From positions 1 through 64,000 of the forward strand of contig QPGO01000122.1 of NCBI GenBank assembly GCA_008632985.1: 64,000 bases of DNA, in the 5' to 3' direction. The position numbers and the translations under genes were made by a program. This DNA comes from Psammoneis japonica. Its lineage: Eukaryota. The notes under the pieces are model-generated. The model had not been told where the DNA came from. It ran no database searches and was given only the letters and a program-made list of their open reading frames with translations. Within the stretch, counting starts at the first letter, position 1, and every line of letters starts with the position of its first letter. Of the stretch, positions 1 to 33,690 are shown one piece after another.

Positions 1-3000
1 GTGTTCCTGACATTTGTTGCACACAGCTGTCAGTTCGGCCTCCACTTTGCATCTCTGAGAAGATTGTCTGGTTTCTACATCATGGCCGTGGATGTGCTTG
101 TTGTGCTCTTCCCCCACAATTCCCGCCATTGTTGCCAGACAAACGTTCCCATCTGTGCTGTCCAGTTTGGTGGTTGTTTGTTCTCCTCCTGGCACTGACA
201 AAGGATCCCAGAATCTTGCAGTTGTCCAGATTGATTGACATTTTCCACAGAGAGGAATGCCTTCTGCCAAACACTTGTCCCCACCCCACATTGGATTGAG
301 CTTGCCACAGAACTCTGCATCTGCAATCAATGTCTTCAAGATGCGCCATCTTGCTGTTAAACCATGCTTCGATGGACTGCAACAAGAAATCCCGAAGGGT
401 TGGCATGTTGTTGATTTGGTCACAATGCCTCCTTGGACCTTGTAGAAACTTTCTGTGCCATGGTTTGTCATGCGGACAGTGGAGCATGTGGTCCCCATCT
501 TCCATGGGATGCTCACAATGAAGACACTGGTGAGGTCTTGCTGAATTGCAATGGCGGATGATCTCATTGGTGAGGAGAAGATTGTGAACCGGCTTGACTG
601 TTCCAACGTGTTGCTTGGAATGATGTTTTATGAGGAAGGCATGAGCATCCCAATCCATCAGCTCCGTCACCTCTGGACTCCACTGATTGCATTCAACAAT
701 GCACTGCAGCAGCTGTGGGGTGGTGGCCGCATGTCTGACATGACGTTCACAACCTGTGGTCAACGTGCCATCTGGAAGACTCAAACATGAGTGACAGTTT
801 GGAAAGGGCAGCACCATTGTGGCATCCCAAGGGTGCTGGCCTTGGCATGCCCCTGCCAATCGATCCGCTCGGACGTTTGCTCTAGCATTGAGGGGCAGGG
901 CATGAATTGGAGCGTGCCAATCTTGATGGCCCTTCACTCATTTGACTGGCAGTGGCTGTGTGAAAGAGCCAGTTACAAATGTCCTCTCCATCTCAAGCCA
1001 AGTGTGCAGTGTCTCATCAATGACATCCCAGTCAGGAGACATGCTGTTGGCTCCAGGATGTCTGACATGAAAATCTCTTGTTTCATCCAATTGTTCCTCT
1101 GAGGTTGGAGCTGGAAGGATTGTGGTGAGTTGATCAAGACAAGACACCAAAGCTTTGTTGTCACAGTGTGATTCCATCTCTGGAAGCTGTTCCACTCTGC
1201 AATGTTCCATGAACCAGAAAATGAATTGAAGGAGGGACAAAATGCCACAAGCCTCTGCCCGGCATGACGACGGTCTTCTGCCAAAGACTGGTCCTGCACA
1301 ATCCACCAGTGGTGCACCGTCCAGGGTGATTGTCCACCCAAAGGCAGCTCCATCTTTGATGGATCCATCACTGCCAGCTGTTAACTTTGACGACACAAAA
1401 CATTGGATTGGCATTTGCGGTGGTGAGTGAAAGTCCAGTTGGTCAAACAACTTCTCTTTCCACTGGCCCAGCAAGTGCAGTTTGTCTTGGAACATGTCTG
1501 GGATCCTGGAGCTCAGGAAGTCTGATGATGAAGTGTGGGGCAGAGCAAATGCCCATCAACCATCTTCTGTTGTTGACAGTTCTGCCGGAAAAGACTCTTC
1601 AGACGGGGCCAGAACTGTCTCCAACTCTGTGACAGAGTTGGTCCTCATGCCATTCACTTGAAAAATTTGACATCCGTTGGTTGATCTAACACACAGTTGC
1701 TCTTCAGAAGGAGAGAAGTGTGCTGAGGCTTGCATGCACATCTGAGATGGAGGCACTGACCAATTGCCAAGAGGTTCCTTGAGAGTGTGTGATGCCGAAC
1801 GACACAGAGAGGCACAGAACTTGCGCCACGTGGTCCAGGCTCTTGTTCCTGGTTTTTGCTGTTCAACGTTGTTCAAGGAGCTGGAGTTGCTCTGAAGCAA
1901 CGGGTCTCCTGCTGTTTTCGTAGCCTCCAATGTCAAGCCATCTGCAAGAGCAATGTCAGACACTGACAACACCTGAACATGCAGTTGACAGCAATTCATC
2001 CATCTGACTTCTCTGTGAGAGAAGAGTTGGGACTGGAGCACAATGTCCATGATGCACTGATTGTCATCACGTTGAAGGGAAAAATGCCGGAATGAGTCAA
2101 ATGTGCTTTTCCTTGAATTCTGTGTGGAGAAAAACATGAACGGAGGCAAACCAACAAGATTCCACATGCGGGAGTTCTGCATCTGCATCCCACAGAAAGC
2201 TTTCTCCGGTTTCTGAGTTCAGTTGGATCCATGACACTGCAATGTGCAGCAGTTTGTGCGGTTGATCCTCTCCCAGATTTAATTTGGTGACTCCTCTGGA
2301 ATGCTTCAGCGACATTTGCAGTTGAGCAACGCCTTGCTCTGCATCCAATGATCGAAAACCTCTGCCTCCCAGGGCTTGGGGACCGCACAAGATGAATCTT
2401 TTTGCACTTTGATTGCACCCACATTTGGCAAAAACAACTCGCATGGCTTTCTGTTGAACTGCAAGCAACTCTTTGGGAAGGAAGGTTGAGTTTGGAAAAA
2501 TGCATGTCATCGAAGAAAGGCAGCAAGCGTGGTGGCATCTCCATGTTTCAATGTGATTGAAGTGACAGGATCTAAGGAAGAGGGCCGCAGCATCACTCTT
2601 GTGTTGGAGTTTCTTTAATTGGGTCTTCTGGGAACCGATTGGAGCCATGCAGTGTCCAAGAGTTTTGTGCAGTGTGTTGTGGCACATGTGCTTGCATGTC
2701 ACCAGTGTGAATGACGGTTGGATGTTTTGAAGCATGCTCCTGTTGCTTTGGCATCAAAAATGTTGAACAAATGGCTGCAAAGGGTGTTCCAGTGCCACGG
2801 AAAATTGCCGCTGCCTTGACCGGTGCCGCAGAGGGGGGAATCATCCGTGTGGGAATGACTCCGCTGGGCCAATCCCAGCAAGGTGTGCAGCCAGTGTCTG
2901 GCATGATGCAAGGCATCTATTTTAACTTTGACCACGTGTGAACCCACTCCGTCACTCCGGGAACAAAGTCCAATGATTGCAGGGACATTCTTCTCAAAGC

Positions 3001-6000
3001 ATGAGGTGAAATCATCGTCGCTTGTCAAGCAGTGTCATCTTTCTGGAAGCTCGGGACATTTCTGGCATCAGGTTTTCAAGAAACACAGGAGTCTGGGCAG
3101 AGAGGAAAGAGTGGCAGCCATAAATTCCTGGGTCACACATCCGGTGGTGCTCCATGTGTTGTGCCAGTTCTCGCCACTTTGCGCTCGTGATGATTTGAAA
3201 ATCTGCTTTGCAGATGTGAGTCACGCGCAGGCGGTGCATTTTGTTGTTGCCTGGCTCTTTGAATGTCATCACATTGATGATGTTTTTCCAGCGGTCATGT
3301 GAATGTCCCCATTTCAATGTGCAGTTAATGAGATGCAGTTGAATCATGAGTGACGTTTGCTGAACCTGGTCAAGGAGTGATCTCTTCGGGGTCGGATTGC
3401 CTTGAGTGTCTTGAGCTTTAGAGTGTGAATGAGGTGCGCACAATGCCTTCCAACATCCAAGATGTGATCCTGATTTCAGCAAGGTGGACGTTGCTTCTGA
3501 CCACGTTTTCAATTTAGACAGCAATGCGGTGGATGAGAGACAATTGTTCACCGTTGGAGGTGTGTGATGACGAAGATGCTGGACAAGTGACAAGGTCGCA
3601 TGGTTCAACTGACTGGTGTCACATTCTCCATCCAAAACAAGTTCTGCCACAATGGTGTCACCTTTGCACCCCAGGTCCACTGACAAGGGCGGGACAGTCA
3701 GCGGTGCACCTTTGGCCTGGCCAAAATGACGTTGATTCCTGGACTGAAGTGCTGCTTCGACGTCGTCCGGAGCTTCCACTGTCATCCAATGCTTGCAAGT
3801 CTTTGGGTTGTCATGAGGATTCACTGGCACTTGAACAGTCTTAACACTGGAGTCCTCCTTGGCCTTGCATGCGTTAATCTTTCTAAAGACTCTCTTGGTC
3901 TCTTCTGCACATCGCACATTGCAAAGAATTTTGGCCTGAGCTTTTGACGCTTTGGCACCTTCTAGCTCCAGTTCCGCAATTTTTGTTTCTCATTCAGAAT
4001 CACGGTGTTTCTGGCTCTCTCTGGCGATCTGTCGGCACTCGGATCTAGCACAGCGCAAAGCAGCAGAACATTCTTGGATTGTGGGAAGGAGAAAGGAAGA
4101 AGAGATTTTACATTTCTCTTGAAGAACCAAAGGCACCACATCCTTGCGATTGCGGAACATTGACATCATTCGGGACAATGCAAAACTTGTTTCCAAAGAT
4201 CGGCGAGTTTGATGGACCATTCTGGCTCTTTGTAATGTTTGCATTGCTTGGCTGCTGCCAGGGAGAATTGGGTCATGTCACGGTTGAGTTGCTCAGCAAG
4301 GCTGTGGTCAGGAGTGTCAGATTGAAACAAGGCTGTTGCATGATCCAGAATGTTTCTACTGGTGGTCAAGGGATCCATTGCTTCAAGACACGTGGTGACA
4401 TGTTTAGGAGACAATGCTTGGAGATCACTGAACTTTGGTCTTGGTGAATCAACTGACGGACTGCCGAACAGGGCAACTGTGTCAAAATCCACGAAATGGG
4501 CATGGTGATCCAAAGACATGCAACAGCTGAATGGTTCACATCCACAGTGCCGCACCGCTGCTAAAGCACCGGGGGTCACTGGCACACAATCCAAACATCT
4601 GGAGCCTTGCACACAGGCAGAAAAATCAAGGTCTTCATGCTTGTGATGCATGGCGTCCGACATGTTGAATTGTTGGGCCACAGATGTGAGAGTGTCGGAA
4701 TCGTCACGGAAGTCTGTGTTAAAATTGCCTGCCAGAATCACTTCCCGATTTGGCTCATCTCAAAAGTGTCAAGAATGCGTGTCAGATCGGTGCAGAATGC
4801 TCGCCGGGGATCTGGATTTGCTTGGCCTTGTTGATGGAGAAGCGCCACTTGTTGAGCACATGCAGTTGTTTTGCCTGCAATGGACAACGAGTTAGAGCAC
4901 ACTCTGCAACACAAAACAAACATGACCTGTTGGCCGTGCTTTCCATCAAAGATCTGCATGGACCAGCAACCCAATGGATCTTTGCATTGTGCTCGACACC
5001 TCTAGGGACAGAGAGTTGCAAGATGTGACAGCGGTGCCACCTGGTTCACAAGGAGTGGAGAAGGGAGTCTTTGATGACAAACAGGTGATTCTGCCATGAC
5101 ACAAGCCTCTTGTTGCCGCTGCCGTGCAGCTGTGCCAAACTTGGAGTTGTGCAGTGTCTGAACATGTCTCAGAGATGCCTGTGACATCAGCTTGAATTTC
5201 TGTGGCCACTTGTGCACAATCATTGATGTTGCCACCACGGTGATCAAATGAACAGCCATTGGTGTTGAACGCACACAATCTTGTGTGTCCAGACAATTTG
5301 GGGAGCAGTGGATCACCAACAGGGTCATTCGAAGACAATCTGGTGCAGTCAATGGCAGTGGAGGGAGGGGCGTGACTTCTTCCTGACAACAACTGGGTCC
5401 ACTGCTGTGCAGTGGGATTAACTGCAGACGAAGGGCATCACCCCTCATTTGGAGGCCGTGCTTCCTTGAAGGAAGGCTTTTGAAGACTTGCGTCTGCATC
5501 ATGCAGTGGAGGCAGGTGAGACAACTGGGCCTGCCTCAAAGAAAATCTGAGTCATCCATGTCTGTCACAGTTGCATCCCTGGGAGGATGATGAGAGGAGG
5601 GGGCTGCAGGGACCAACGCAGCTTGCTTCTTGCGCTGAGGAGAAACTGGTGTGTTTGGAACCACAGATGCAAACGTCTCTTGAATCGTCATTTGCAGCTG
5701 GGCTGTGAGAGTGGTTTGTAATTGTGTGGCCACTGCTTGCTGTGACTGGGTGGACAGCGCCGCAATTGATTCTTGGTGCTTCCGTTCTAGGGCTGCAAAA
5801 TGTTTTTCTTGTTCTTGTTGGTTTTGACAAACAAGCCGTTGTAATTTGGCGATTTGCACAGACTGGTTCATCACATCCGACATGGGGATGGCACCAGGGA
5901 TGACTGCTCCAGGCTCATTCTGCAACACCTGGGAATGCGTGGGAAAACCTGCATTCACTCCGACACTTTTTGGGACTGGAGGACCTTTGGATTCTGTTGA

Positions 6001-7200
6001 TTGAGGAGGAGCGATGGAAGCTGCTGGAGAAATGTCTGAAATGTCTAGAGACGCCCAACTCTGAATGCTTGTGGAAGAGATGGATTGAACCCTGTCTGAC
6101 ATGTCATCACCAATGCCAGGGATCATGGGTTTGGGTTGGGCATCTGGGATGCCTGCCTCTGCTGCAATGGCTTCAAACCACTCTGGAAGATGTTCTGCAA
6201 TGCAGTGCTTGGCTTGATGGAACAAATCCTTGTCCACAAGAATGTCGCACCTCTGGACAATGGATGGTTTCTTCAATGGGACCACATCCAGGACTCCTGG
6301 CACCTCTTTAATTGCACCTGTCAGGCAAAAAGTGGGCTTCAATGTGATGCAATGCCGGTGTGATGTGGGTCTTGGCACTCATTTTATGTTGTTTGTGGGC
6401 TGCTTTGTCAAAAGCTTCTGGTTGCAAATGACGCCAGCGGGACAAGACCAACGCAAGAGGATGTTCTTTCAACACCTCCAATGAGGCATGAATCACATCT
6501 TTTGCTTGATCATGGGGAGTTTCGATGGCATGGAAATTAGTCCGAAGAGATTGATCTGCCAGTGATGAAGCCGACTGAACTGCCAACCTGACAGGCAATT
6601 TTAAGCAGCTGCGTTGAGGGAGAAGGACCATTGACAATTTTTGAGCCACATCTTTGGGGCAATGCTTTGGGAGTGGGTCAACAAGTGGAGCCACTTGTGC
6701 CAAATCAACGATGGTCTCGTCCCAGTGGTGGTGGTGCACGCAGATGCCATTGTCTTTCAATGCTTTGTTGATGAAAGGGACATTCCTGACACAGGCAATT
6801 GACAAGGATGTGCGGATTCTGTGTGCAATGACAAACATTGGAGAACAACGGCGTGATCCACCCATGCAGTGCACGACGAAATGTTGAGAATGAGTGAGAC
6901 CGGAAGTCAACTTGACAATGTTGATTTTGGGTGTTTTAAGACCACGGTTCAACACAATTGTCATCTGATTCATCAACGGATCTTGTGAGGCTTTCTGTTG
7001 GAGAGCATTGAAGATTGTGGCATGACCCATGGCTGACACCGTGGATGTGTTGTCGTCCGATGAGGTCAATTCAAAACAGATGGCAATCTCTTTGAGCATG
7101 GTGCTTTTGGGTTTTCCGGATCCAGTTCTGGTGGGAGTGGGTGGAGCATCATCAACATCAGGTGGTGGATCTGGCTGAGGGGTCACCGGCATGGCTGGCC
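1..7200 (-). mobile_element. Decayed non-LTR retrotransposon (APE-RT-RNase H, Ambal/L1-like diatom LINE), running off the window's left edge
   Basis: Minus-strand frameshifted fragments occur in canonical order. ORF1 is 5536-7192. The APE endonuclease (4166-5392) shows LCAFNTNG, TGISET, ILAGNFN, GSRCLDC and SLDH. The RT region (1996-3917) shows WKNIINVMTFKEPGNNKMHRLRV and GTGQGSGNFP. RNase H (938-1495) shows GSDGS, SSCRAEACG and HCDNKAL. A C-terminal CLHC...DHMLHC zinc finger lies at ~460-530. Confidence 0.88.
5536..7192 (-). pseudogene. LINE ORF1 (gag-like) remnant, frameshifted near 6310-6380
   Basis: Two abutting ORFs (6308-7192, 5536-6378) with a coiled-coil segment lie directly upstream of the APE domain. 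Confidence 0.65.
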
Positions 7201-8283
7201 TGTGGCGGCAGAGGATTTGTCATGGTGACAAGTTTTCGGCACAAATTTTGTGCAGAATTCCAAGCAGAAAACCATCAACAGGAACTTACGCAGAAAAGTG
7301 CAATCTTTGTGCACAGAGGACAGATGTGCACACAAAAGCTTGGGAACTTGGGTCAGAGGGGTGTTGGTTGAAAGGCAAAAAGAGCAGCCCTCAAAAGGGT
7401 GTGACCAATTCACAACCCTCAACGGGGTGCATGTGCCAATGGGCTCCATTTCTGAATGATTGTGGGTGGAGTGCAGCAGGGTCTTGATTTAGTTTTGCGG
7501 CACCACAGGCCAGTTTGTTCTGTTCCTTGAGGTCTGCAATGCACCATGCATGCAACCGCAATTGATTGATGAAGTGAGGCATGCAACAGCACACAATTGA
7601 CACACAACAGAAGCTCGATTGACATGACTGAAGCACACATCACTGTGTGTCCGTGTGCGCAAGATGTTGCACAAGTGAGGTGAAAAAAGGGAACATGTTG
7701 ATCAAAAAGCTGACTGTGTGTTGACAAGACTTTCATGCAAAAAATGCAAAGGAGCCTGACATGTTTCAAAACAATGCTGTTCTGTGACATGGAAAGTTTT
7801 CACAGCAAAAAGTGCGCCAGATGATCACAGGACATCAGAGGCAGCAACACAGTGGTTTCCACTTTCCTTTGTAAAATTTTGAGTGTGCACTGTTGAAATT
7901 GTCAACAAGCAGAACTTAAAAAATGCCAGCAAAAGTGCTTGACAAAATGAAACTGTTTTTTGCATTTCATCTGATGTCTCATTAACTTTTCTTGCACAAG
8001 CTTCAATCAAATGCATGTGATGTTTAATTGAATTAGGACCAAAATCTATTTTTTGTTGTGCATGGTTTGGTTTCCTTTTGATCGTACACAATCAATTTGA
8101 ACTTGGTTTTAACTTTGTCCTCCTCACTCACGTGTGTGTGTCTTTGCACGTGTGCAGTCTGCAGCACTTCACGCACGCACGTGACCCACCTTCATTTTTC
8201 TTCACTTTTGCACAGCCCGTTGGTCTACGGCGTTTTCAGCACATGTTTTGCATGCGCAATTTTCTGCACATTTCACAATAGTG

Positions 8284-11200
8284 CACCCTCACCCCAAAGT
8301 TTGAAAAACGAGAGCGCGTGCTGTTATGATTCACGTGGATCTCATTGATTGACTGGATTCGTCTCTCAGAAATTTGGAGTAGATTTCTACGTAATCAGCA
8401 CAACACGTCACCAAGTTGAAGTTCATTTTGTTGGCGGGAAAACAAAAAGCATGAGAATTATCACGCACCCGGTCGCTCAACGATGATGCTCACCATTTTC
8501 CCAAAACCCATGACTTTTCATGTTACGGCATAGAGCGACCTTCTATAAACATCAGTGAAGCCCCCTCTACCCCGTGACACAAAAAACCACAATGAGCGAC
8601 GTCAGAAATTCATTCGTTGCCAAGCACGTGCAACTCGTCTTCGGGGACAAGCGTCTTCATAACTGTTGGATGCCGGTGGACCTCTGGGTGGAACATTGCA
8701 ATGCTAAATTTGGTTTTTCCAATGAGGATCTCCGTGCAATGGGCAGAGAGACAAAGAAGATGTGCAAAAACCAAGCTGGAGTGTCAAACGTGACAACAAC
8801 AAACGACATTGTCGGCGATGGCGTGAGTCTGCACAAGACAGAATGCAGTTGTCAGATTAATGGCAAACGAGGAAACCACACATTCTTTCTTGTCACTGCT
8901 GGGGTTCCTGGCCAATTTCTTCATCCTCCAACAACTGGGAATGACAGTGTTGAAGCTTGGCTGCAAAGTGGGGCAGCCCGGAAGCAAACTGGGAGAGACT
9001 CAGTGCGACGAGCAGAAATGCTCACAGAGCATTCGGAGACAGATCCCGACATCCAGAACATGGAGAAGGCATGGCAAGCAAAGAAAAAGCAACGCATTTC
9101 AAGTGAAAATGAAAATGACAACATGTCCATTGAAGATTTGGAGTCCGCCAGGCAAGACAATCTACCACGACTCGACCATTGGGATTCTACCCGAGCCCGT
9201 CGCATCTTTGCTCCGCCCTCTGTTTACCCATCTGATGTCAATGTAAAGGCGGCTGTACAAGACAGAATCAACATTCTATCAGCTGTTGTCAACCATGCCC
9301 AAGGATGCAAATCTGTGTTGCCTGATCAGGATGACAACAATGTGACTGCCGACTGTGAGAAGGTTGCCATGAGGCATCGTGCGCTGCACATCAAGGTGGC
9401 GCTTCAGACGGCGCTTGACAATCTCAAAGGCGAAGGAAATGAGATTGAAGGCAACATGAGTTGGGGTGAGTGTTGTCAACATGCTGTCACCAGACTGAAA
9501 GAAGATGGCATCACGGCTGTGTCCAACTGGCAGACGGTTCAGCGGTGGCATCGTCGTTTGGCCGACGCCGGTGATTGCTTTCCTCAAAGCCACAACCGAG
9601 GCAAACAACAGCTTCCATCCTTCTTCAGCGAGAATCCTGAGGTTAAGAATGCTTTCACTCGACATGCAATCAAAAACTTGAAGGAACTGTTGGTCGAATT
9701 GATGCACGAGCACCTCCACCAAAAAATCATGCCGGCTCTCATGCTGGGTGCAAAGAAAGACGTCGTGGTGGTGGATGACGAAGACTTTGAACAAGCTGTG
9801 GATTCTGTGGGTGAGTCTCCCGCGCTTGGTGCAGAAGAGGAAGCTGCTGAGGAAGAAACCAAGAGTTTGTTTCTTAAACAGCACAAACTCCGTTCACTTT
9901 CTATTTCTGCAACAGCACGCTGGATGCGTCTCCTGGGATTTAGATGCACAAACAGAATGAAAGGATTTCATGTCGATGGTCACGAGAAGCCCGCCACAAA
10001 GTCGCATCGCAAGAAGTTTACAAAGGAGCATCTTGAGTTGGAGAAGAGGTGCCACCGGTGGATTCAATTGCCCTTGGACGAGGCGACCGAGCTCATGAAC
10101 CAATCATTGGTTCCGCGTCGGGGTGAAAGCTCTGTGTTCACTCGTGATGGCAATGTGTTTGTTGAGTTTCAAGTGGACGACTACAGTGGTTTCCATGATG
10201 TGATTGTGCAATCGGACGACTTGAATGCAAGGCAGCATGGCGGCCATCTGAGTTTCCACTTTCCCACTGGTGAAAAGCCCATCATCATGTGGGGACAAGA
10301 TGAGGCCATCTACAAACAGTTCCTGTTGACTGAGAAGGCGTGGGTGGGACCCAATGGCGAGACGGCTCTTGTCCCGAAAGATGAAGGTCCAGGTGTCATG
10401 CTGTCTCTGTTCACATCTCGCGAGTTTGGTTTGTTGCGTGAGCTTGACAAGGAGCTGCTCAAGCAAGTCAATGAAAAGAGAAGTGGAACCAAGTGCAGTG
10501 ATGAGGAAGCAGCAAAGGAAGCCAGGAAATCAAGCAACAAGAAGGACTTGGAGAAGAGCCCGTTCCTGGTGAAATTCGAGCACGGCTCCAACGATGAAGG
10601 CTGTTGGAACCACAATCACATGGTGACACAGTTGGAAGACTGTGTTGATGTGTTGGATGAAATGTGTCCAGAATTTGAGCACGTGTTTTTCTTTGATCAC
10701 TCGGCAGGCCATGCGAAGCAGAGGGAGGACGGCTTGTCGGTTGACAAGATGAACCTGGGCTGGGGCGGGAAATGCAAAATGAGAGCAAGCAGGCTCACAG
10801 ACAAATGCATTGGACAGCATGACAATGCTCACAGATTGCAAAGTGGCAAGACACAAGCAATGGCATTCCAGGAGGAAGACAAAGGGCCTTGCCTCATGGC
10901 TCCGGAAGAACGACAGCGACGAAAGCACGACATTGTGACGAGCGAAATCAAGACCGTTGACAAGCTCAGAGAAGAGCCAGAAAATGATCTGAAGCAAAAT
11001 GATGCAAGCCACACGGTTCTCAAGGGTACAACCAAAAAGGATTTGCAAGATGATTGCGAAAAAGCCGGCATTCCTACAAAGAAGACCATTCCGAAGACAG
11101 CACCTGGTTGGACAGGCAAGCCCAAAGGATTGCTGCAAGTCTTGATTGAACGTGGTTTGATTGATGCAAGCCTAAAATGTGGAAAGGGAGGGACAAACAA

Positions 11201-12005
11201 TGAGCATGGGAGCTGCAAGGAAAATGCTGAGCCCGCAGAACTGCTTGCCTCCTGCAAAGATTTGCGAATGAAACAACGCAACTTCAGCATCATGCGAAGC
11301 TGCTGGGGGTCCGAGCAATCTTGACTCCAAAATGCCATGCCGAATTGGCGGGAGAAGGCACAGAACATCTCTGGGCATGCTCCAATGGTCAGTGTCGAAA
11401 CCTCAACCTGTCACAGAAACGAGGGAAAGACAATTTCAAAAAATCAGTTGATTGTTGCTTGTCGGAGGAGGCGTTGACCTTGAACGCATTCGCAAGTTTG
11501 CCAAACGCGCAAGACAGTGCATTCAAGCTTGCCATGTTGACAATGGATGCGTGGAGGACACAGAGAGGGTCCACGAATTTGGACCTGATGCGCTTGACAA
11601 GATGATCAAGACGTTCAAGACACACTGATGTGCTCTTGATTTCGAGTTCAAGTTCGTTCACTGCATTGCGGAGAACGAGGTTGCAGCTGCAATCTTGGAG
11701 TGAATTTCGGAGCAAATTTTCAAAATCGCGCAGCCACAGCACAATTTGTACGGGGACATTTTTGTGACGTCAACATGACAATCACCATCATCATCAGAGA
11801 GCATGTTTCATTTTATGCCAGCTTGCGTACATTTCTGCACCAAGGAGTGTCACGACAAATCCAGCAATGCGTGTGGTCGCAAATCTGCAAATCGACAACC
11901 GGCCATGGCGGTGAAAGACTTTGCCCCATTGGCCGAGGACAGCAGCTCAACGTGTGGTGACACCTGCCATCCTTCTGGTTGGTCAAGATGGGGTTTTATT
12001 GGGTG
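8284..12005 (+). mobile_element. IS630-Tc1-mariner-related DNA transposon (large DDE transposase); ends tentative
   Basis: Contains the transposase below. Weak terminal IR tg|CACCC...ACCCCA..TTGA (8284) versus TCAA..TGGGGT..GGGTG|ca (12005). The flanks are compatible with a mutated TA TSD. Confidence 0.55.
8592..11700 (+). pseudogene. DDE transposase, mostly open (916-aa ORF) with a frameshift near 11270-11320
   Basis: Motifs VDGHEK, GQDEAIY, PKDEGPGVMLS, EGCW, FFFDHSAGH, PKGLLQVLIERG, then TPKCHAEL..EGTEHLW in the next frame. These match the DGHE/DES/FDNS/PKFHCELNPIE type of ITm transposase. Confidence 0.85.
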
Positions 12006-12251
12006 CAGCTTGAATTTTGTGATCGCGAGTGTGCTGTCACGAATCTACTGCGTCCAGAATGCTGAGCTGCTGGCGTGTTGTTGTGTGTTGTGTGCACGCA
12101 CGTCACAAACTTGCTTTTCTGCAGCATTGTTGTAATCGCGCATGTCAGAATTTTGCATCCAGAATCATCACAAGTTACCATGACCCCACTCCCAGCGCAT
12201 GCCATGCAGTGGTTCGCCGCGTGAAATCACGGATGCGCGCGACTGTTGCCC

Positions 12252-12836
12252 CGAACCATCACGTGGTTCGCTGCACGCCAAAAACGACCCGACACACAAT
12301 GGCCAAAAAGGTAGAAGGTAAAGAGACATCTACAACAACTTTGCATCAGTCGACACAGCAAAGTCTATTTGACAACATGTGTGCTTTATTTTAGTGGTTT
12401 ACTACGTTCTTAAAAGTCTCCGTACCACTGCCGTCTTGTTCATCGTCGAACCACATTTTTCTGGTGAATTTTGGCATTTGACCCGCTGGTGCAAATTACA
12501 CGTAGATTTCTACGCACGTCCTCCCGAACCACATCATGGTTCGACAAATCTACGGGGTTCTTGGTGCTTGTCTACGCAGCGAACCATTGAGTGGTTCGAC
12601 AATGTCTTCTGGTGCTGTTCTACGGTGGTTTCTACGGGGTGATAAAATCACCGCCAACGACCATGACGGTGATTTGACGGCGACCGTGCTTCATACACGA
12701 GTGGTTGCTGACAACACAATGCATTGGCAACGATGGCTTTTTGACTCTGTCAAAAGGTCACACATGTGCAGGTGCTGATTTGTCGTGTCAGTCGCGAGTT
12801 TCACGTTGCGCAAGTTGCGAACCACTGAGTGGTTCG
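12252..12836. repeat. Cluster of four spaced palindromes CGAACCA-N5-TGGTTCG
   Basis: Copies at 12252-12270, 12525-12543, 12580-12598 and 12818-12836, plus half-sites near 12209 and 12447. Confidence 0.9.
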
Positions 12837-12869
12837 ACATTTTGCCCGAGTGGGGATAAATTGCACTGT

Positions 12870-13960
12870 CCAAACAAGGCATGTACAAAAAGAGGTTCGT
12901 TGGTTTTTGATGCATTTGCTAAAAACACACCCGTCTTTTCGAATTTCTGTGTCCAGACCCAGAAAGACTGCAGGCGGTGCTTGTTCCTGCAGCTCTCAGA
13001 ATCACACATGTGAAAAGTTCTTTACCATGTGTGACACTCTTCAAAAAAGGCATGCACAAAAAGAGCTTCATTTGTTTTTGATGTGTTCACTTACGTTGCA
13101 TCCATCTTCTCTGATTTCTACATCCAGATCCAGAAAGACTGCAGAGGTGGAGAGTGGGGAGGCAACCCATTGGAGGTTGCCTGAGTTGTTGGGCTCATTT
13201 TTAAAAGGCTTCCCAAGTCTCTCCGCTGTTTGTGGTCAAGAGCAGCAGGGGGGGTTGACTGCAACAACCGCAGCAGCTGCCAACTCCATGTCGATGGGTC
13301 AGGAACCGGCAGCAGAAGCTCCCAAATTGGCGGCGGCGGCGGATGCACCTGTGAGTCTACACTGAGGTTTCAATTGGTTGCTGTTGTTGTCCCATGCACT
13401 CTCACAAAGCACTTTACATTTCTTTGCACTGAACAAGGTGGATCAGAGCAATGTTGCTTCACATGGTCCTGAATCGGCTTCGCGGGGTCAGGAACCGGCG
13501 GCAGAAGCAACCGAATCGGCCACGGCAGATGCACCAGTGAGTCTGTGTTGCGGTTTCAATTGGTTGCTGTTGTTGTCCTGTACACTCTCACAAAGTGTTT
13601 TGCACTTCTTTGCAATGAATGAGGTGGATCAGAGCAGTGTTGCTTCACCTGGTCCGGAGTCAGCGGCGCTGGATGCACAGGCAAGTCCACACATTGACGT
13701 CTCCATTGGTTGTGGTTGGTTCATCTTTGTTGCACTCTCACAATGTTTTCTACACCGTTCGACAATGAACAAGGTGGCTGCTGGTGCTGGCAGTGGCTCT
13801 TCAAGAAAGAGAACTGCAGCAGCTGCTACAAACTCGCCTGCTCCAGAATTGGCGGCGCCGGATGCACCGGTGGGTCTATGTTGCTGTTCCTGTTGGTGGT
13901 GTCAGTTCATCCACATTGTGCTCTCACAACGCATTCTGCACTTTTTTGGCAAATGACAAG
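12870..13960 (+). repeat. Degenerate ~175-190 bp direct repeats, including repeated exon-like (Ala/Glu/Pro) plus GT..AG intron-like modules
   Basis: 12870-12973 resembles 13045-13144. The unit GGGTCAGGAACCGGC...GATGCACC|GTGAGTCT...CACTCTCACAA...AAG|GTGG recurs at ~13296 and ~13486, with more diverged copies at ~13670 and ~13860. Confidence 0.75.
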
Positions 13961-15439
13961 GTGGCTGCAAGCAGTGGCACTTAAAAGAAAGTGAGCTGCA
14001 ACTGCTGCAGACTCCAGGGTGTTGTTGTCTCCATCAGCGTCATTCAATTTAAATGCAAACAACAAAATAGAATGTTCATGGCACAATGCAAATGATTTTA
14101 ATTTACAGGTTTTGCAGGGATAGAGGGCGGGCACTCTCACAGGGAAAACGTGTCCCTGTTTCATGGTGAAACATTTTTTCTCACAGGGAGGGGGGGTCTG
14201 ATCCCACAGCACAAAAATGTCAATCTATCACAGTTGACATGTCATTGCCAGCTGCACAACTAATGAGGTTTGAAACCATAAAAAAATTGTCTGTGAAAGG
14301 AATGAAAATCACAATGAAAAGATGTGTGATGATCACTGCATTGCGTGCTCTGATGGAGAACGCACAGAGTGGCAAGCATGAGTGAAGAAGTTTTGAAGAT
14401 GTGGCCTCTGCAATTGCAGCTGGGTCACAAGGGGAACTCAAGGAGTTTTGGAACGGTGGTGCACTCACCTGGGCCAACTGACATGACCACTTCCCCATGC
14501 CCAGCTCTGCTTCGTACGTTGACTCGTTTGCAGTTTTGGAGTGTTGTTGCGGCTTTTATGATGCCAACGGTGACCGACATTAAAAGCAGAAGCTCTCACG
14601 TCTCCAACAATGTGTCTGCCAAGTCACCTGACTGTGCAGTTGGAGAGAACGAGAAATGGTGTTGTTCTCACTTTTGCCGTGCTTCACCATGTAAAAATCA
14701 ACCCAGCACAATGATCCACGCCATTTTCGCGGCGAAATTGAGCCACATTTTCAAGTGCTGCATGATGAAGTCTACCTTTTTGTCACCCTTCCTGCTCTGT
14801 GTAAATTCCCTGTCATCCCTTGAGCAATGCCAGCAGTCCAACTCTCGCCCATCATTGTCATCAAGGTCCAACTCGGCAAATCGACAGGTCACATTTCTGG
14901 CAAACGGCTCTTAGAACAACAGAGAAATTGAACCTGTGCAGTTTGTTGGCCCAAGAGTGCACGCGGCAAAACAGGGCTTGGTGGGATCCTTGGCCGTCAC
15001 CTCAACCGCCATGGTCCATTTGGGCAACGAGATTGGTTTTTCTAAAAATGTGGCACCTGCGTGATTTCCATGGCGTCCCCACCCACACCGGCAACAGCAG
15101 TTTCCATCCGCAAGCAAGTGAGCGCGCACCAACGCGCAGATGTTCTTGTCTCATTTTGTGCTGCACGAGGTGCGCATGCGACAATCGCAAGTTCAACATG
15201 GGACTCGAACAAACGCGGTTGACAGTTGAGATGCAGTCCTGCAGCTGGCAGGATGGATGAGACCTCGGAGGTTGGCAGCAACATGAATGGCAACAGAGGC
15301 AAACAGACGCTTTGTTCAAAGTCGTTGTCCAGAAAATTACAACGAATGTCGTTGCTTCTGTTTGAATTGATTTTGTGATGAGCTGTTTGTTTCGAAGAGA
15401 AAATCTGAGTCTGGGTTGCAGTCGTGAGATGCGACCAGA

Positions 15440-16200
15440 ATGACGTTGAGTCGTGACTCTCCCTCTCAACCGAGAGAGCTTGCCAGCCCATGAGAGCCTT
15501 TCCAGCCGTGCAGAACGCATCGGTCCACAGTCCCTTCGTGAACTGATCGGCCAGTTGCTCTAGAGTGCTGACAGGTTGGATGTCGATCTCCAATTGTTCG
15601 ACTTCATTCCTAAACCAGTGGTGCGGGACACCAATCCTGCATCTGTGCGGCACGTGGGACCTTGTCAATTAGACCAGGTTGAGTGAGTGGAAATCGACCC
15701 TCGGAGAGCTTTTCGATCTTGACACCAAGAAAGTTGCCGACTTCTCCTTCGTCTCTACACCTTTCAGCGTGTGCAGGATTTCTTGAGGGACCAACCACAA
15801 GTCTTGATGCAAGACCAAACGCAAGGGCATCCAAGAGTTTTCCTGACAATGTTGTTGGTGTGGATGACTTCCGCAACATGTGGAATTCGACGCAACTTTG
15901 GCTTGTGGCAAAGGAAGGGAAGAGTGAGAAATTGCGGAAAGGGAGTCCATTTCATTGTCTCCAAAAACTGCTTTTTGGATGCACGCATTGCAGTTGTGCT
16001 TTTGAGCTTGGGACCAAACAACTGCATTCCAAAACCATTGGCAAAACATTCCATGTCATCAAAATCAACCTCATCAGGAAATTGGAAGGAAGGATTGGGG
16101 TCGACCTCATTGTGGGACGGGGTAAAGTTGTTGACCGCCATGGCAAGAGGTCAGTTGTGATTCACGTAGAACACACGTGGATCATGACAGCACATGCTCA
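15440..16200 (-). mobile_element. Internally deleted Ty1/copia fragment (RT and RNase H 3' end, PPT)
   Basis: EGEVGNFLGVKIEKLSEGRFPLTQPGLIDK (RT) and HHWFRNEV...STLEQLADQFTKGL (RNase H end). A purine tract GAGAGGGAGAG follows on the minus strand (15457-15467). Confidence 0.85.
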
Positions 16201-16689
16201 GGTCAAATGCAGTTTGGGGAGAGGATGCACTGTTGTGAAATGTGCAGATGATTGCTCATGTAGAATGAGTGCCAAAAGCCGGGCAGAGAGCCATGCACTG
16301 AAATTCTGGGAGGTGCTGGAAAAACAAGGCAGGAAATTTGCATGGGGGTGACTTGGGTGCAGAGGATGTGCCAGACACTACGGCGGGGCATGTGCAAGGT
16401 GGAGCTGTTGAAAACAACAATCAAAGGCAATGTTTCAAAACAAATGTGACATTGTTGTCAAATTGCAATGTGCGAAACTCAAGCAAAGAACAAATTCAAA
16501 TGAATTGTCAAAAATGAATGACAACAAAACGGCAACAAATGTCCACATAAAACGCATCTGTTAAAGGCAGTGTGTCAATTGCTTTTACATGCAAAAATTC
16601 TAAACAAAAGATTGACATGCATGACATTGATTGGCACAAATTACACAAAGAAAATTGAACACCACCATGTTGCAGCCTCTGATGGACCA

Positions 16690-19330
16690 AATGTTCTCAC
16701 AGGTTGTGTCAATCTGTGGCAAGATGGGAGGTGGTGTCTTTGCCAGTCGAAGAGAGCAAGGCATGTTCCATCCTCAGAAAAGGAAGCAGTGGGACCACCC
16801 AATGCTGTCACGTCAATCATGCATGACGTGGGTGTCCCACAAACCCTTGTGTCAGACAACATGCCAGAAATGGCAGAGAAAAAGATTTGCAAAGAATGCT
16901 GGATGCATCAGGAGGTGTCCGCCAAAGCATTGATTCATGAGTTGAAGAAATGGGTCCATGTGACTCTGCGCTGGAACAACATTTGTGGACCTGCTGTGCC
17001 CAATGGGTGTGTGCCACCCAGCTCTTAACAGCCTCCAATGTGTCAGAGATGGGAGAATGTGTGTTGGAGGAGATCTTTGGTTCTGCAACTGATGTCTTGT
17101 CTCCCTCCCTCTTTGATTGGTGTCAACCTGTGTGCCACTGCATGCTTGTGGCACAGTTTCCACAACAAGAAAAGAAGTGCATCAGTTGCTGGCTCAGAGT
17201 CACCAACAACTACACCAACAATGTGGCACCCATCATTTTGCCAGAATCTGGCAGGCCATCATCCGGAAGGAGCTGCAGGCCATGCCAGAGGATGACCTTA
17301 AAACCCCAGCTGCATCAAGGTGAACCTGGCATTGGTCAACCAGGCTTTGTTTAAACAACTGGGTGACCTGGATGAGGACTCGCAGAAGCTGAGTTCCATG
17401 ACACCCCTGATGACTTGATTGATGGTGATTAGAACAATGCTGCAGACCCCCCATGGATTTAGACTCAACTCACCCAGAAGCCAACAAGCATGCCCCGGAG
17501 GGGTTGGACAAATGCCATGCTCTGCCAAAGTTGTGCTGCCACAAGGAGGTGAGTTGACCCATGCCAGGGTCATTGCCCACAAGCATCATGGCAATGGTGT
17601 TCCCACAGGTGCAAGAAATTAATGACAACTCAGTCTTAGATTCAAGGATTTGTGATGTTGAATTTCCCAACAGGTCCATGGCCAACGCAATTGTGGAGAA
17701 CCTCTTTGCACAGATTGATTTGGAAGGCAACTTGCATCAGATGACAAAGGAGACAGTTGATCACTCAAGCAATGCTCGTGCCATTGAAGGCTGATGACGG
17801 GCTTGTGACAACCAAGTCTGGATGATGTGTGCCTGGGATGATGACCGCAGGGTGGGACCCAGTCCACAGGTCAAGTGGAAGGATGGGATGATGTCCTGGT
17901 GGGTTCCCCTTAAGGATTTGAAGGAATCTGACCCAGTGGAGGTTGCTGAGCATGCTGCAGCAAACAAAGCAGCCAGCAAACCAGCTTTTAATTGGTGGGT
18001 CCAAGACATCTTGCATTGCAGGACCAGGATTTTGAAGAAGGTCAAGTCACATTGCTGGAAATGTGTGAACAAGTTTGGAATTGAGCTGCCCAAATCTGTC
18101 AAGGAAGCCTCAGAGATGGACAACAAAACAGAGACTGACTTTTGGTTCAAAGCAATCAAGAAGGAACTGCAACATCATGCCTGCATTTGAGTTCCAAGAT
18201 GACAAAGTTGAGCTGGTTGGGTGAAAACACATTGATTGTTGTGTGATCTTTGACATCAAGAGCACTCTCCAATGCAAAGCAAGATTTGAGGCTTGGTGCA
18301 TCAGACTGATCCACCAAAAGAGTCAACCTGTTCTGGTGTGGTGTCATGCAACAGTGTTGGCATGCCTTTCACTGTTGCAGCTCTGAATGACCTGAAGGTC
18401 TTGAGCGCAGATGTTCAGAATGCCTGTCTGGATGCCCGTGCCAAGGAGAAGTGCTGTGCTGCTGCCACATTGGAGTTTGGCAAGCACAATGTTGGAAGGC
18501 AAGTTGTTGCAGTCCATGCCTTGTATGGTCTTAAATTGTCAAGTGCACGATTTGGGGAGCACATGGCAACAACTTTGCATGATGCTGTTTTTGAATCATG
18601 CAAAGCAGATCCAGATGTCTGGATGTGACCTGCAGTTGAGCTGGATGGCTTCACGCACTGGGAACATGTGCTTGCATGCATGGACAATTTGTCATGCATC
18701 TCACATGACCCCAAGAAATTCATGGATTGCATGAGCTCTGGGCACATGTGGAAGGACGGAAGTGTCTGCAAACTGGAAGAGCACCAGGGAGCACAAATTA
18801 GAAAACATCAGCTGTCTGAGGAGGATGGCAAGACACACTGGGCTGTGTCTTCTGACTTGCATGTCAAGAGGGCATTGGCAGACATTGGACCAGAGCTTGG
18901 GAAGACTGACAGGCATCTTTTGACAAAGGTGTTGACACCCTTGAGCTTGGGATGCAGACCTGAACTGGACAGTTCACCAGAGTTGAGTGCCAAAATGGCT
19001 GGCTGCTGCCAAGGTCCCATTGGGGTGCTTGGGTGGCTGGGCAGCAGAGCTGGGATAGATTGACATCTTTGTTGCCATCTCTCTTGTGCCATCCCACCTT
19101 GCAGCACCAAGAGCAGGACACCAGGATGAGGTGCTCCATGTTTTTGCATGCTTGAAGGCTCACTCAAGGTCTGCACCAGTGTTTGATGGCACTGAAACAA
19201 TCTTCAATGAGAGCCAGTTTGCTGAGTGTAACTGGGTGGAATTTCATCCCGGCGCAGCTGAGCCAATGCCACGGAACATGCCAGAGATGTGTGAGAACAG
19301 TGTGGCCATTGAGCAGGATAAAAAAGGCAA
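16690..19330 (+). mobile_element. Heavily decayed Ty1/copia (CoDi-like) pol: integrase, linker, RT
   Basis: TLVSDN (integrase), VKWKDG..WVPLKDLKESDPVEVAEH...PAFNWWV, CSGVVSCNSV..AALNDLKVLSADVQNACL, ALYGLK, CKADPDVW and EHVLACMDNL (YVDD equivalent). Confidence 0.9.
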
Positions 19331-19399
19331 ACATTGGTCAAGGCCATGGCCAATGTCCTGCAATGCTGCAAACAAGGAACCAGCAGAGGTGCCATGAGT

Positions 19400-22300
19400 G
19401 GTCACCCACCAGAGCACCTGTCCAGGCTTGCCAAGAGGAGCCATTGCTCCAACTGTGCTTTGTTCCAGCCTTGCAAGAGGTCACAGATTGTTGTGAGAGA
19501 AACTGCAAAAAATGACTTGCGCAAACGCTTGCCTCATGCACACACCTGATCCCATTGGCTCCTGCAGTCTCAGTGTTGGTGGATTGACAATGGGAGGAGG
19601 AGAAGCTTGACTGGTTCTCTTGGTGCCAAAAAAAAACTCCACAAACACTTGGCCACACTCAGGTGTGGCCTCTCCCTCTGCCCCAGTGGTGTCTGTGCTG
19701 TGGGAACCCTGCAAGTGGCATCTCCTCCTGCAAACAGTCTCAGCATCTTTCAACTTTTTCCCAAGGGTGTCTGCAGTGATGGGAGTGAAATGACTGAGAG
19801 GCCCATGATGACTCTCCTGTCAAACAGGCCCCATCCACTGGGTCACAAAGAAACTTGATGTGCTTTCCATGGACAAGGCTGTCATTGAACTCCTTTTGCT
19901 TGGTGGCCTTCAAAATGAAAAGGAGAGCTGCTTCTCTTTTGTTGTTGTCCAGGAAGGTGCCAAGAGTTGGGCAAGACACCTGGGTGCTGGCTCTCCTGGC
20001 ACGCCTGCCAGCTTGAAGCAGCAGATCATCATCAGCAGAGGTGGAATCTGAGGATGACGACTCTTCTGGCATGTGTGCACATGGCGAACAAGAGCATCTT
20101 GGGAGTGAGGAGAACACATTGTTGCTGCTGGAGAATGCATCAAAGAGATCCACAACATTTCCAGCAGTTGGCTCTCCAGCCCATTCAGACTCTGGCTGTT
20201 GGGTTCAGCAGGTCTTTGACAAAGCCTTGAGCCCTGGTGGCAGATGAAGCCCTTGGCTCTGGATGCACACCTTCAGCATGGACATGCTCAGCAACATCAT
20301 CCACACTGCCAAAGTGTTCATCTGGGAGGGTGCATGCCATTTCAAGAGACCTTTGTGCAGGCATCCCCCTGTCTCAATTCTTGGCAACAATGTCATCAGA
20401 CAACAGGCTGGAACAAAATGACATTCACACAATGCACGGCACAGAAAAGCACGCACCTTTTTCTCACTCTGTCCCAACCAGTGGATGCAAAACAGGCTGG
20501 TGCAGGCATGCATGTGGATGACCGTTGGAGTCAAATCTGGCTGATTTGTGTCTGATTTCCATCCAATTTGAGTTTCTGGGACACAACCCTGTGTCCCAAA
20601 AAATGCGTTCATCTGTGCACTCGTAAGAAAATGCAACCCAGCAACCACCCTTTATGCTGAGATTTGCAATTGACACTGGCATCTCCACCACCCACAAAAA
20701 CATGCTGCACCATGGTGTGACAACTTTGGAGGCCTGCCACTCTGCAATTGTGACAATTTGAAAAGTGACACCATGCAGCCTTGTCAATCCCCACACGTGT
20801 TGTCTGGCTACATTTCATCCATTCAACATGAGTGGCCATGCAAGGAAAAAATGTCTCTCTTCTTCATCATTGCAATCATTGGCCAACCCCAAGTGTCCTT
20901 GGCATGATGTGTCTGCTGTGATGGAACCAGAGGGTTTGGAGTGCTCCAAGTGCAATGTGAGTGCCAAAGATGCCAGGAACACATTTCTTTGCAATTGGTT
21001 GTTTGAGAAAACACAGGATTTGTGTTGAATGCCATGCGGGAGTGTGCAGCAGTCTAGAAGAAAACACAACAAACTGACATGCCCAAAGTGCAGCACCCTT
21101 TGTGCCAAGCATCAGACAGAGCCATTCACTCAAGTGCACTCCACAAGATGGAAAAGTGCAAATGCAAAGAAAGATTTCTGTCCATGAAATGTCCCAACCC
21201 ACAGAGAAGAAGGGCTTCATTTGACACTTTGAAACTGCAGCACTCAAGCATCAAACCAGTTTGGTTGGCATTTCAGCTGGGTCTGCAAACTGTTGTCATT
21301 TCAAAAGACAATCCTTCTGAAATGGGAGACAGCAATCAAAAGGGTTTTTTCAAGCTGGTGAAACCACCACAGGCTCAGACATTCAAGATTCAAGAGCCTG
21401 TGGTGAAAGGTCTTCATTCAATTGTGGTCTGCCATGACTCAAACAAGACTTGGTGATGCTGCCTGATGGTGCATCCCACCAGCTGAGTGCTTGCAGATCT
21501 TGCAAAATCAGACAGCAGCTTTTTGTGTGACTCCATGTTCTGTCTCTCTTGTGGGGAAAGTGGAAAGGAAGTGGAGGAAAAAAAAGGGCAAAACATTGGA
21601 CAGCGGCCAATGGCGCCATTTGTTCAAAAAGGTTTTTGTTGCCACTGACATTGTGAGGAGTGTGCGATGCTTGAATGGCAGCAACGGCATTGTGCAGTCA
21701 CCAATTGGCCCACACTTGACTGCTCAAGTTGCACCTGACAATCTCTCTTCTCTCTGCTTTTTGGATTTGGTCTTGTGACAATGAAGCACACTGAAAGGCA
21801 GAGGAACCAGAAATTTGCTGATCAAAAGATTTTTGAAGGGTTTGACTTCTCCAAAACACCAAAGTGCAACTGCCTGTGTGACCAGCAGCAAGACAACTGT
21901 GGGCACAAAGTTGTGGAGGAAAGAAAAAACAAGGTCGGCCATGTCCAAACTGCTCAAAAAGTGATGCTTCTGCATGGCCAAGAAGAAGCAACTGCAGACG
22001 GACTGTGCTGCAACCAAAAGAATCGAGACTGAGAGGCTCTTGGCCAGGAGCCTGACCATGATTTTGAATCCGAACAACAACTTGAGCATTTTGATCATTG
22101 TGAAGCTGTGAAAGGCACCAATCAATTGGACAAGGAGCATCTGGGGGCCATCAAGTTGGTCATTGTTTGTGATTAAAAAAATGTGGCCGACTGCACAGGA
22201 TGCAAGGACAACGCTGCAGATGATGGGGTTTGAGTGGACAGTTGTGCCACACTGGAATGAAATGATGTGATGGGCAATTGTGAAGTGCTTCTCAAACTGT

Positions 22301-22750
22301 CATCAGATTCAACATGGCAAAACATCATCTGCCGTTGCCAAAAAAGATCTGTTGTCAGCAAAACAGATCCCAGCTCTTGGTGTGCAAAGAGCAGCATGAA
22401 GGCAATGCCCAACAATGCCATGGCAAGCATGCAGGCACCACTTGCTGATCTGCCAGCTGGCATTTCCAGAGAAGATCAGTGTGATTGGACAACATTCATG
22501 TGCTGCGTTCCTGGGCAAAGTTGGGTTTCTTCTCATTGCTTGTCATCCTGTCATTTTACAATGTGTTGACCCACATGTGTTTTTTGCTTTTTGAAACTTC
22601 TGCTCACGCTGCACCAACCACCCAACAGCTTTTCCTGCAAGGTGTGGCCAGTTGTGCAGTCACATTGAACCCAACCGTTTGTGGCCAGCTGGTGCTGCCC
22701 CGGCTGACTCATGTGAACATTGGGCTTGCCACAAGCAAAAAAAAAAGATG
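19400..22750. mobile_element. Unclassified, strongly decayed TE-derived sequence (possible gag-like remnant at 19740-20160 minus)
   Basis: Almost devoid of TpA and CpG, like the neighbouring TEs. No intact domain is recognisable. Confidence 0.4.
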
Positions 22751-33642: not shown

Positions 33643-33690
33643 GACTTTAATACTACTCGTGTAAGTGTTCTGAGATATGTGCGAACAAGT

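Follow-up and report, generated by a model that had tools for sequence, protein, structure and literature searches.

The transposon-derived DNA of the 64-kb window analyzed here (the whole stretch of contig QPGO01000122.1 from position 1 to 64,000) has lost roughly nine-tenths of its TpA dinucleotides (TA) to TG or CA, and the TAs that survive are not a random sample of those that once stood there. The ease with which a TA mutates varies with its two flanking bases in either direction, such that TAs in R-T-A-Y were hit fastest (R, purine; Y, pyrimidine; N, any base), with ATAT and ATAC almost extinct, those in Y-T-A-R were hit slowest, and the most resistant context is T-Y-T-A-R-A. We hypothesize that the surviving TAs record the neighbor-base preference of a process that converts TpA to TpG or CpA in transposon DNA and spares genes, with an adenine deaminase as its most likely agent, and we assign this reading a probability of roughly 0.72. 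A preliminary description of positions 1–7200, a long interspersed nuclear element (LINE), had suggested either an enzyme footprint wider than the dinucleotide or protection by a bound factor; comparison of residual contexts in transposable elements and in genes bears out a bias that extends past the dinucleotide. All counts were drawn from the window itself, together with protein relatives from public collections.

By the relatives of its genes and mobile elements the window appears to be eukaryotic and alga-like: the nearest clusters of its bestrophin gene are found in diatoms and green algae, and some of the proteins related to its copia elements carry diatom names. Two kinds of DNA alternate along it. 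The genes in which Pfam domains were recognized (a MutS-like frame, DDHD, bestrophin, and an FAD oxidoreductase) have TA observed/expected ratios (O/E) of 0.5–0.74 and CpG near 1, whereas the mutated DNA, comprising seven main blocks and a 500-bp stretch at 25751–26250 (40.5 kb in total), has TA O/E of 0.03–0.28 when scored in 2-kb windows, is low in CpG, and reaches approximately 1.6–1.9 for TG and CA. Pooled, the mutated DNA has TA O/E of 0.09 and TG and CA of 1.57, compared with 0.63 and 1.18 in genes. The depleted segments fall on the LINE, copia, and other repeat DNA, and the Pfam-domain genes are spared. TA is the only such dinucleotide to be lost; AA, CA, and GA show no depletion (AA O/E 1.23 in mutated DNA vs. 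1.15 in genes) and AG stands at 0.98 vs. 0.93. CpG decay accompanies the loss of TA as a separate signal. As unmutated controls we used the gene DNA listed in table 1 and the stretches 23250–25750, 47000–52500, 56500–59500, and 62250–64000.

In the LINE at 1–7200 we counted 41 TAs, close to the 40 or so estimated in the preliminary description, where base composition predicts 460; 16 of them lie in TCTA or TAGA and 24 others in TTA or TAA, again as had been estimated, and the lone remaining TA is in CGTAGC at 1921. GTAC, ATAT, GTAT, and ATAC, which had been reported as unseen, each occur zero times. Classified by immediate neighbors, the 41 TAs comprise 28 YTAR, 13 mixed, and 0 RTAY sites, against expectations of 10.9, 20.4, and 9.7 from the flanks of all pyrimidine–purine (YR) steps in the same DNA (chi-square P = 2.7e-9) and of 6.2, 22.5, and 12.4 from the TA contexts of unmutated genes (P = 4e-21). 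The influence of the next base outward is already visible here: 12 of the 13 CTA sites are TCTA, although only 173 of the 456 CT dinucleotides of this stretch have a T before them.

The same bias is present throughout the mutated blocks, which retain 228 TAs, compared with 826 in the control genes. RTAY accounts for 10 of the 228 survivors and 249 of the 826 gene TAs, and YTAR for 106 and 124, respectively; across the nine TA-holding blocks the RTAY counts are 0, 0, 4, 2, 1, 2, 1, 0, and 0, hence never more than four in any block. The pooled class bias is significant against either baseline (chi-square P = 5e-29 relative to genes, 6e-16 relative to YR-step flanks of the same DNA). Survival relative to genes falls from 0.48 for TTAA, about half of the gene level, through 0.35 for CTAA, 0.34 for CTAG, 0.23 for GTAA, and 0.14 for CTAC, to 0.065 for GTAC, 0.058 for ATAG, 0.053 for ATAA, 0.008 for ATAT, and 0.004 for ATAC. 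The sparing noted in the preliminary description is relative, as YTAR sites are still hit (relative survival approximately 0.3–0.5). In a log-linear model, terms for the ±1 bases gave likelihood-ratio test statistics (LRTs) of 214 (3 degrees of freedom [df], gene baseline) and 112 (YR-step baseline), and a four-parameter flank model, with one rate per flanking base and fitted block by block, beat a flat rate by an LRT of 194 (3 df). Survival follows the order A > G > C > T at +1, with fitted rates of 1 for A, 2.5 for G, 4.8 for C, and 8.5 for T. The resulting spread between TTAA and ATAT is about 8–9 fold; at an equilibrium of mutation and back-mutation it would be approximately 50 fold, and the bias would still be one of the forward rate.

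Beyond the immediate neighbors, the ±2 bases carry comparable weight: terms for them improved the log-linear fit by a further 104 (gene baseline) or 132 (YR-step flanks of mutated DNA), each with 3 df. A occupies +2 in 53.5% of survivors and 28% of gene TAs; by trinucleotide, TAGA makes up 82 of the 129 surviving TAG sites, TACA 62 of 101 TAC sites, and TAAA 100 of 195 TAA sites. T at −2 is enriched in all five independent blocks (46–69%, vs. 21–27% at the TG/CA sites within each block), and four of these blocks are also enriched for A at +2. T is also favored at −3 among LINE survivors (51% vs. 27%), whereas pooling all blocks shows that the effect has faded once +3 or +4 is reached. Most frequent among the surviving hexamers are TGTAAA, TCTACA, CTTAAA, CATAAA, and TCTAAA. 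Because a T at −2 or an A at +2 is protective irrespective of the base at ±1, TCTA is one instance of a wider rule: the preliminary description was right that TCTA/TAGA is spared, but the motif is not special, being one case of T-N-T-A/T-A-N-A. Similarly, its statement that TCTA is spared on both strands is correct across the window and not within the LINE, where sparing is one-sided (12 of 13 CTA sites are TCTA, and TAGA accounts for 5 of 13).

Conserved tyrosines provide a coding read-out of the same process. Every tyrosine codon is TAY, and near-total loss of tyrosine hence fits the context rule. At 73 positions conserved as tyrosine among the unmutated relatives of three elements, 59 now encode cysteine (33) or histidine (26) and 2 are still tyrosine. 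The LINE contributes 26 of these positions (15 Cys, 6 His, 2 Phe, and 1 each of Trp, Tyr, and Asp), the copia-type pol remnant 28 (14 Cys, 10 His, 2 Pro, 1 Phe, and 1 Tyr), and the 921-codon frame of the element at 8342–11867 contributes 19, defined as columns with tyrosine in at least two of three homologues (10 His, 4 Cys, 3 Phe, 1 Ser, and 1 Val, with no Tyr). Where tyrosine codons remain in the tabulated transposon frames, they are preceded by a pyrimidine in six of six cases; for the tyrosine codons of host genes the figure is 50 of 98 (P = 0.03). The three tyrosines that had been reported in the 921-codon frame are indeed present, at residue 223 (in TTTAC), residue 542 (in ACTAC), and residue 585 (in TCTAC); a fourth tyrosine codon lies at residue 4, upstream of the first methionine. 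Homologues of this frame are only 30–38% identical, and its residual TA codons are not datable as old or new.

Three elements carry a hint that the two strands are not treated alike. Among LINE survivors, 21 have T at −2 alone and 6 have A at +2 alone (P = 0.006), and in 8750–12000 there are 11 with Y at −1 alone and 1 with R at +1 alone (P = 0.006). The fate of conserved tyrosines differs between the LINE, whose sense strand is minus (15 Cys to 6 His), and the 8342–11867 element, whose sense strand is plus (4 Cys to 10 His; Fisher P = 0.018), such that adenines on the minus strand appear to have been hit more often in both; together with the 14:10 of the copia remnant, these ratios point to an element-specific strand bias of the mutator. 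The biased strand of the two adjacent elements at 1–12 kb is the same physical (minus) strand. A further candidate effect, G at −1 favoring histidine (7 Cys to 15 His; chi-square P = 0.036), was not relied on, since the LINE shows the opposite (5:1).

An alternative is that the flanks mark protection as opposed to preference, with 5′ T-runs and 3′ A-runs (TTYTARAA) limiting access through a rigid, A-tract-like structure or a bound protein. The T at −2 and A at +2 of survivors, the T at −3 in the LINE, and the five commonest hexamers named above are what such an account would anticipate; however, across the pooled survivors the effect has faded at +3 or +4, and it recurs across unrelated elements without shared sequence, and is one-sided within single elements, unlike a symmetric structural effect. 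We consider protection unlikely.

The preferred reading, a mutator with its own neighbor preference, would take the following form. A repeat-directed A:T-to-G:C change would occur at TpA, preferring R-T-A-Y and avoiding T-Y-T-A-R-A, and its agent would be an enzyme contacting roughly a hexamer. This enzyme is most likely a DNA adenine deaminase (converting deoxyadenosine to deoxyinosine, which is read as G) that would require T 5′ of the target A and favor pyrimidines 3′ of it, in the manner of the TadA/ADAT type. It probably acts on one strand at a time, sensing the bases that lie 3′ of the adenine it attacks, as the three elements suggest; we lean slightly towards such strand-wise action. 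The alternative chemistry would place the lesion on the thymine: the T of TpA could be modified to 5-hydroxymethyl- or 5-formyl-uracil by an enzyme of the TET/JBP type, and modified thymines mispair with G, giving T-to-C. TA to CA on one strand is TA to TG on the other, and sequence alone cannot separate the two chemistries. To our knowledge there is no precedent for the [not T]-R-T-A pattern that thymine modification would require on the modified strand. Nothing in the data favors a thymine-modifying enzyme, and the one published case of the signature proposes, in the preprint that describes it, an ADAT2-like adenine deaminase (Mettrop et al., bioRxiv 10.64898/2026.01.13.699255), so that we regard thymine modification as quite unlikely.

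Whether the surviving TAs are old can be addressed at sites of known ancestry, for which ancestral TAs were read from three repeat pairs inside the window (63 copy-sites). The mutated copy at 31060–31491 has changed 17 of the 21 TAs of its unmutated partner at 47188–47620 (10 to TG, 6 to CA, and 1 to TT), and all four of the TAs that it keeps are also TA in the partner, indicating that these survivors are old and not new. The 453-bp copies (46042–47195) and the 242-bp repeats (38062 and 46485) differ at TA vs. TG/CA and at TG vs. CA; the latter sites are ancestral TAs that mutated independently in each copy. Survival at the known ancestral sites was 9 of 19 for YTAR, 7 of 22 for mixed, and 2 of 22 for RTAY (Fisher P = 0.012), a count that is conservative in that an ancestral site escapes notice when both copies have acquired the same product; the context dependence of survival proposed earlier is hence upheld, on a small scale, against ancestral sites themselves.

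These comparisons bear on the converse possibility that the residual TAs are new, having arisen after a context-blind erasure by ordinary C-to-T and G-to-A changes at CA and TG in particular contexts. TG and CA are plentiful in the mutated blocks as raw material, and some variation between TA and TG is recent: when contigs of a sequencing run were aligned to 1–20000 at 80% likeness (3465 placed) and the 40 best-supported of 2686 differences were examined, 3 were TG in the window and TA in the contigs. Yet the flanks of TG and CA are near uniform in every block, so that uniform back-mutation would yield about one-quarter RTAY, where we observe none among the 41 LINE survivors and 10 among all 228; the four TAs of 31060–31491 are shared with the unmutated partner, the LINE and the copia element each keep one conserved tyrosine, and even at equilibrium a context bias needs a context-dependent forward rate. 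New origin is therefore very unlikely. Among the same 40 best-supported differences, 19 set CpG against TpG/CpA and 9 set TA against TG/CA or TG against CA, and in recent times CpG decay seems to have been no less active than the loss of TA. That the elements arrived TA-poor, or that ADAR-like transcript editing was fixed by reverse transcription, is scarcely credible and appears already largely refuted by the repeat pairs, as copies of one repeat differ precisely at TA vs. TG/CA and the independent TG and CA changes in the flanking direct repeats of one element post-date its insertion, conserved tyrosines have been rewritten to cysteine or histidine, the non-retro element at 8342–11867 and noncoding repeat DNA are equally affected, and the 3′ G preference of ADARs is opposite to the pattern seen. 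These points outweigh the retroelement nature of two of the elements and the preference of ADARs for 5′ U/T and their ability to deaminate deoxyadenosine in RNA:DNA hybrids, as described in PMC5389660.

Several observations weigh against the deaminase reading or its strand-wise form. The enzyme is deduced from the pattern within 64 kb of sequence alone, and T is the preferred +1 base, in place of the C for which the TadA lineage is known. Both baselines are proxies for the original TA contexts of the elements, the direct ancestral test comprises only the 63 copy-sites, and the size of the preference depends on the model, a one-off wave giving 8–9 fold and equilibrium approximately 50 fold. A comparison of products (NTGN/NCAN excess in mutated vs. 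gene DNA) was dropped, as its sums were unbalanced and the original composition of the elements differs from that of genes. With respect to strands, the hint comes from only three elements; additive (per-strand) and multiplicative (duplex) flank models are equal (log-likelihood difference of 1.9); at sites of asymmetric context a 3′-flank model is right 13 times and wrong 8 times (binomial P = 0.38); tyrosine outcomes (Cys or His) sorted by the −1 base and stratified by element give an odds ratio of 2.2 (P = 0.31); the table of His and Cys codons shows no effect (P = 0.36); the copia outcomes lie in the predicted direction but weakly; and TGY vs. RCA, used as a proxy of strand bias, did not track survivor asymmetry over 11 blocks. 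The fullest version of our proposal, that a diatom-like alga runs a repeat-directed DNA adenine deaminase working on one strand at a time with a recognition site some four bases long (T required at −1, a pyrimidine at +1, and any base other than A at +2), for which T-Y-T-A-R-A would be a blind spot, is offered as tentative and as less probable than its negation.

Table 1. Features of the 64-kb window, with surviving TA counts by context class where available.
Feature	Coordinates	Strand	Remarks
Dead LINE-like non-LTR (long terminal repeat) retrotransposon	1–7200	−	41 TA vs. 460 expected; CpG depleted too
3526-bp element inside high-copy repeat, with 921-codon frame	8342–11867	+	21 TA in 8750–12000
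TA-depleted block	13000–23000		64 TA; O/E 0.03–0.16 (2-kb windows from 14001); 0.28 in 12001–14000, overlapping block start
Copia-type pol remnant	16759–19343	+	48 full-length copia relatives align; weak RVT_2 match
TA-depleted block	26750–31750		32 TA: YTAR 14, mixed 16, RTAY 2; includes mutated repeat copy 31060–31491
Unmutated gene DNA, control	32000–38000		TA O/E 0.5–0.74, CpG about 1; holds 1390-codon MutS-like frame
242-bp direct repeats, 93% identity	38062–38303 and 46485–46726		Bound GC-rich element
GC-rich (57%) TA-depleted element	38250–46750		48 TA: YTAR 24, mixed 23, RTAY 1; flanked by 242-bp direct repeats
Two 453-bp direct copies, 91% identity	46042–46494 and 46742–47195		Both partly mutated; source of inferred ancestral TA
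Unmutated repeat copy, 21 TA	47188–47620		Direct ancestral reference for mutated copy 31060–31491
TA-depleted block	53250–56250		11 TA, RTAY 0
TA-depleted block	59750–62000		6 TA, RTAY 0; short copia-like match 60353–60660 (−)

The LINE label of the preliminary description is supported by homology. The open reading frame at 3015–3989 finds 1460 relatives, of which the full-length ones (1.9–2.1 thousand residues) carry Exo_endo_phos together with weaker RVT_1 and zf-RVT matches, and 35 long relatives align to 114–5371 on the minus strand; these relatives mark 1–7200 as the remains of a non-LTR retrotransposon, now dead. The LINE piece 2100–2753 found nothing in a word-seeded search for homologues, nor did two LINE pieces in a PDB sequence search. 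Pfam searches of frames from the mutated blocks (134 frames of at least 100 codons from four stretches, and eight LINE frames) returned weak matches only (RVT_2, 0.0024; Exo_endo_phos, 0.082); Pfam was also run across the window on 22 frames of at least 250 codons, which yielded the gene domains named above.

The element at 8342–11867 is a 3526-bp insertion without a counterpart in other copies of the high-copy repeat around it, in which contigs join 8341 directly to 11868. Its frame at 8559–11321, previously described as a 916-residue transposase, is open for 921 codons, hypermutated yet uninterrupted. The transposase label finds no Pfam match and no PDB match in a profile search, and with only four homologues among 5.8 billion proteins the frame may belong to an undescribed family of mobile-element proteins. 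A degenerate 33-base pattern from the high-copy repeat gave 0 matches in a metagenome scan. Nearby, a 676-bp stretch at 12180–12856 is likewise missing from other repeat copies, as judged from contig joints, and retains many CpG and TA sites, including five occurrences of TCTACG at 12511–12633; its appearance is that of a small insertion of younger age, which the mutation has largely bypassed to date.

Elsewhere in the window, an unbroken frame of 1390 codons at 33694–37863 (minus strand, TA and CpG normal) encodes MutS domains I and V and a weak C-terminal GIY-YIG match (E = 3.7e-4), a domain architecture that we take to be reminiscent of plant organellar MSH1. In the GC-rich element at 38062–46726, frames free of stops for 727, 576, 483, and 406 codons have no Pfam match; with TAA and TAG erased, long frames in mutated DNA can be spurious. 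Inverted-repeat pairs of approximately 50 bp at 32085–32888 (800 bp apart) and 58928–59261 (334 bp apart) lie in unmutated DNA and may be small elements resembling miniature inverted-repeat transposable elements, untouched by the mutator. A degenerate 33-bp tandem array of 6.6 copies occupies 52813–53038, within a GC-rich stretch of strong GC skew; the tandem repeats of the window are too few for an internal consensus.

A TpA-erasing mutator of foreign DNA appears to have been described so far only in one 2026 preprint, on the chlorarachniophyte Bigelowiella natans (Mettrop et al., bioRxiv 10.64898/2026.01.13.699255), and our literature searches found no paper on a TpA-erasing process in diatoms. 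The fingerprint defined here (vulnerable R-T-A-Y and resistant T-Y-T-A-R-A, with rates spread over about an order of magnitude by the ±1 bases and shifted further by those at ±2) is an aid to finding the enzyme, as it can be compared with candidate deaminases in vitro and with de novo mutations collected in Bigelowiella. It could also help to recognize the same process in other genomes, to date the exposure of elements, and to mask regions in annotation, which is needed because the stop codons TAA and TAG vanish and create long false reading frames. If the Bigelowiella events share the same flanks, one ancient enzyme family could lie behind a “reverse-RIP” defense in distant algal lineages; if the proposal is true, the fingerprint would single out the gene for a natural, context-specific A-to-G editor of DNA, and base-editing work could draw on a natural DNA adenine deaminase whose context is defined.

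Among known systems, repeat-induced point mutation (RIP), found in Neurospora and other ascomycetes, is a repeat-directed process of transitions that turns CpA into TpA, kills transposons, and spares single-copy genes. The process described here resembles RIP as a repeat-directed transition hypermutation with a dinucleotide target, but it runs in the opposite direction, as TA is destroyed (0.09) and CA/TG are made (1.57), and it is therefore not RIP. ADARs, an animal family, prefer G as the 3′ neighbor. T/U is their best 5′ neighbor, and they are described as deaminating deoxyadenosine in RNA:DNA hybrids with no reaction on an all-DNA duplex (PMC5389660). The 5′ T preference and a product read as A-to-G are shared with ADARs; unlike them, the order of attack at +1 here is T > C > G > A, such that G is protective, and the changes occurred after insertion, so that the pattern is not that of an ADAR.

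The preliminary description had suggested comparison with the contexts of TadA and of DNA polymerase eta, of which the former fits in part (T at −1 and, less certainly, pyrimidine at +1) and the latter does not. A-to-G is a typical outcome of polymerase eta. Its somatic-hypermutation hotspots are described as WA (W, A or T; PMC7884765), and TA contains such a hotspot on both strands; WA also includes AA, however, and AA is undepleted here, with AG barely raised (ratios given above). In the case of TadA and the ADAT enzymes, the tRNA loop sequence is UACG. The TadA-derived editor ABE8e A48E is described in a review as editing A within “YAC” (PMC13109818). In common with TadA and ADAT2–ADAT3, for which a 3′ pyrimidine is accepted or preferred, the target A here follows T, and the +1 order of vulnerability may reflect a similar leaning towards pyrimidines; in contrast to that lineage, T beats C at +1 and A at +2 is strongly disfavored, and the substrate would be chromosomal repeat DNA as opposed to a tRNA loop.

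The closest known system is that of Bigelowiella natans, in which integrated giant-virus and virophage DNA is reported to undergo TpA-specific hypermutation; the changes are almost exclusively A-to-G and T-to-C at TpA, giving TpG and CpA, clusters poor in TpA and rich in CpA and TpG occur genome-wide, and an ADAT2-like adenine deaminase is proposed (Mettrop et al., bioRxiv 10.64898/2026.01.13.699255). No neighbor preference beyond TpA is reported in its main text, from which the words “context,” “flanking,” “trinucleotide,” and “tetranucleotide” are absent, a point on which its figure and supplements may bear. The lineage here is diatom-like and not chlorarachniophyte, CpG decay is present, and the erosion is far deeper (TA O/E of 0.03–0.15, compared with 0.45 given for the viral region of Bigelowiella); in both, A:T-to-G:C changes at TpA are confined to foreign or transposon DNA and host genes are spared.

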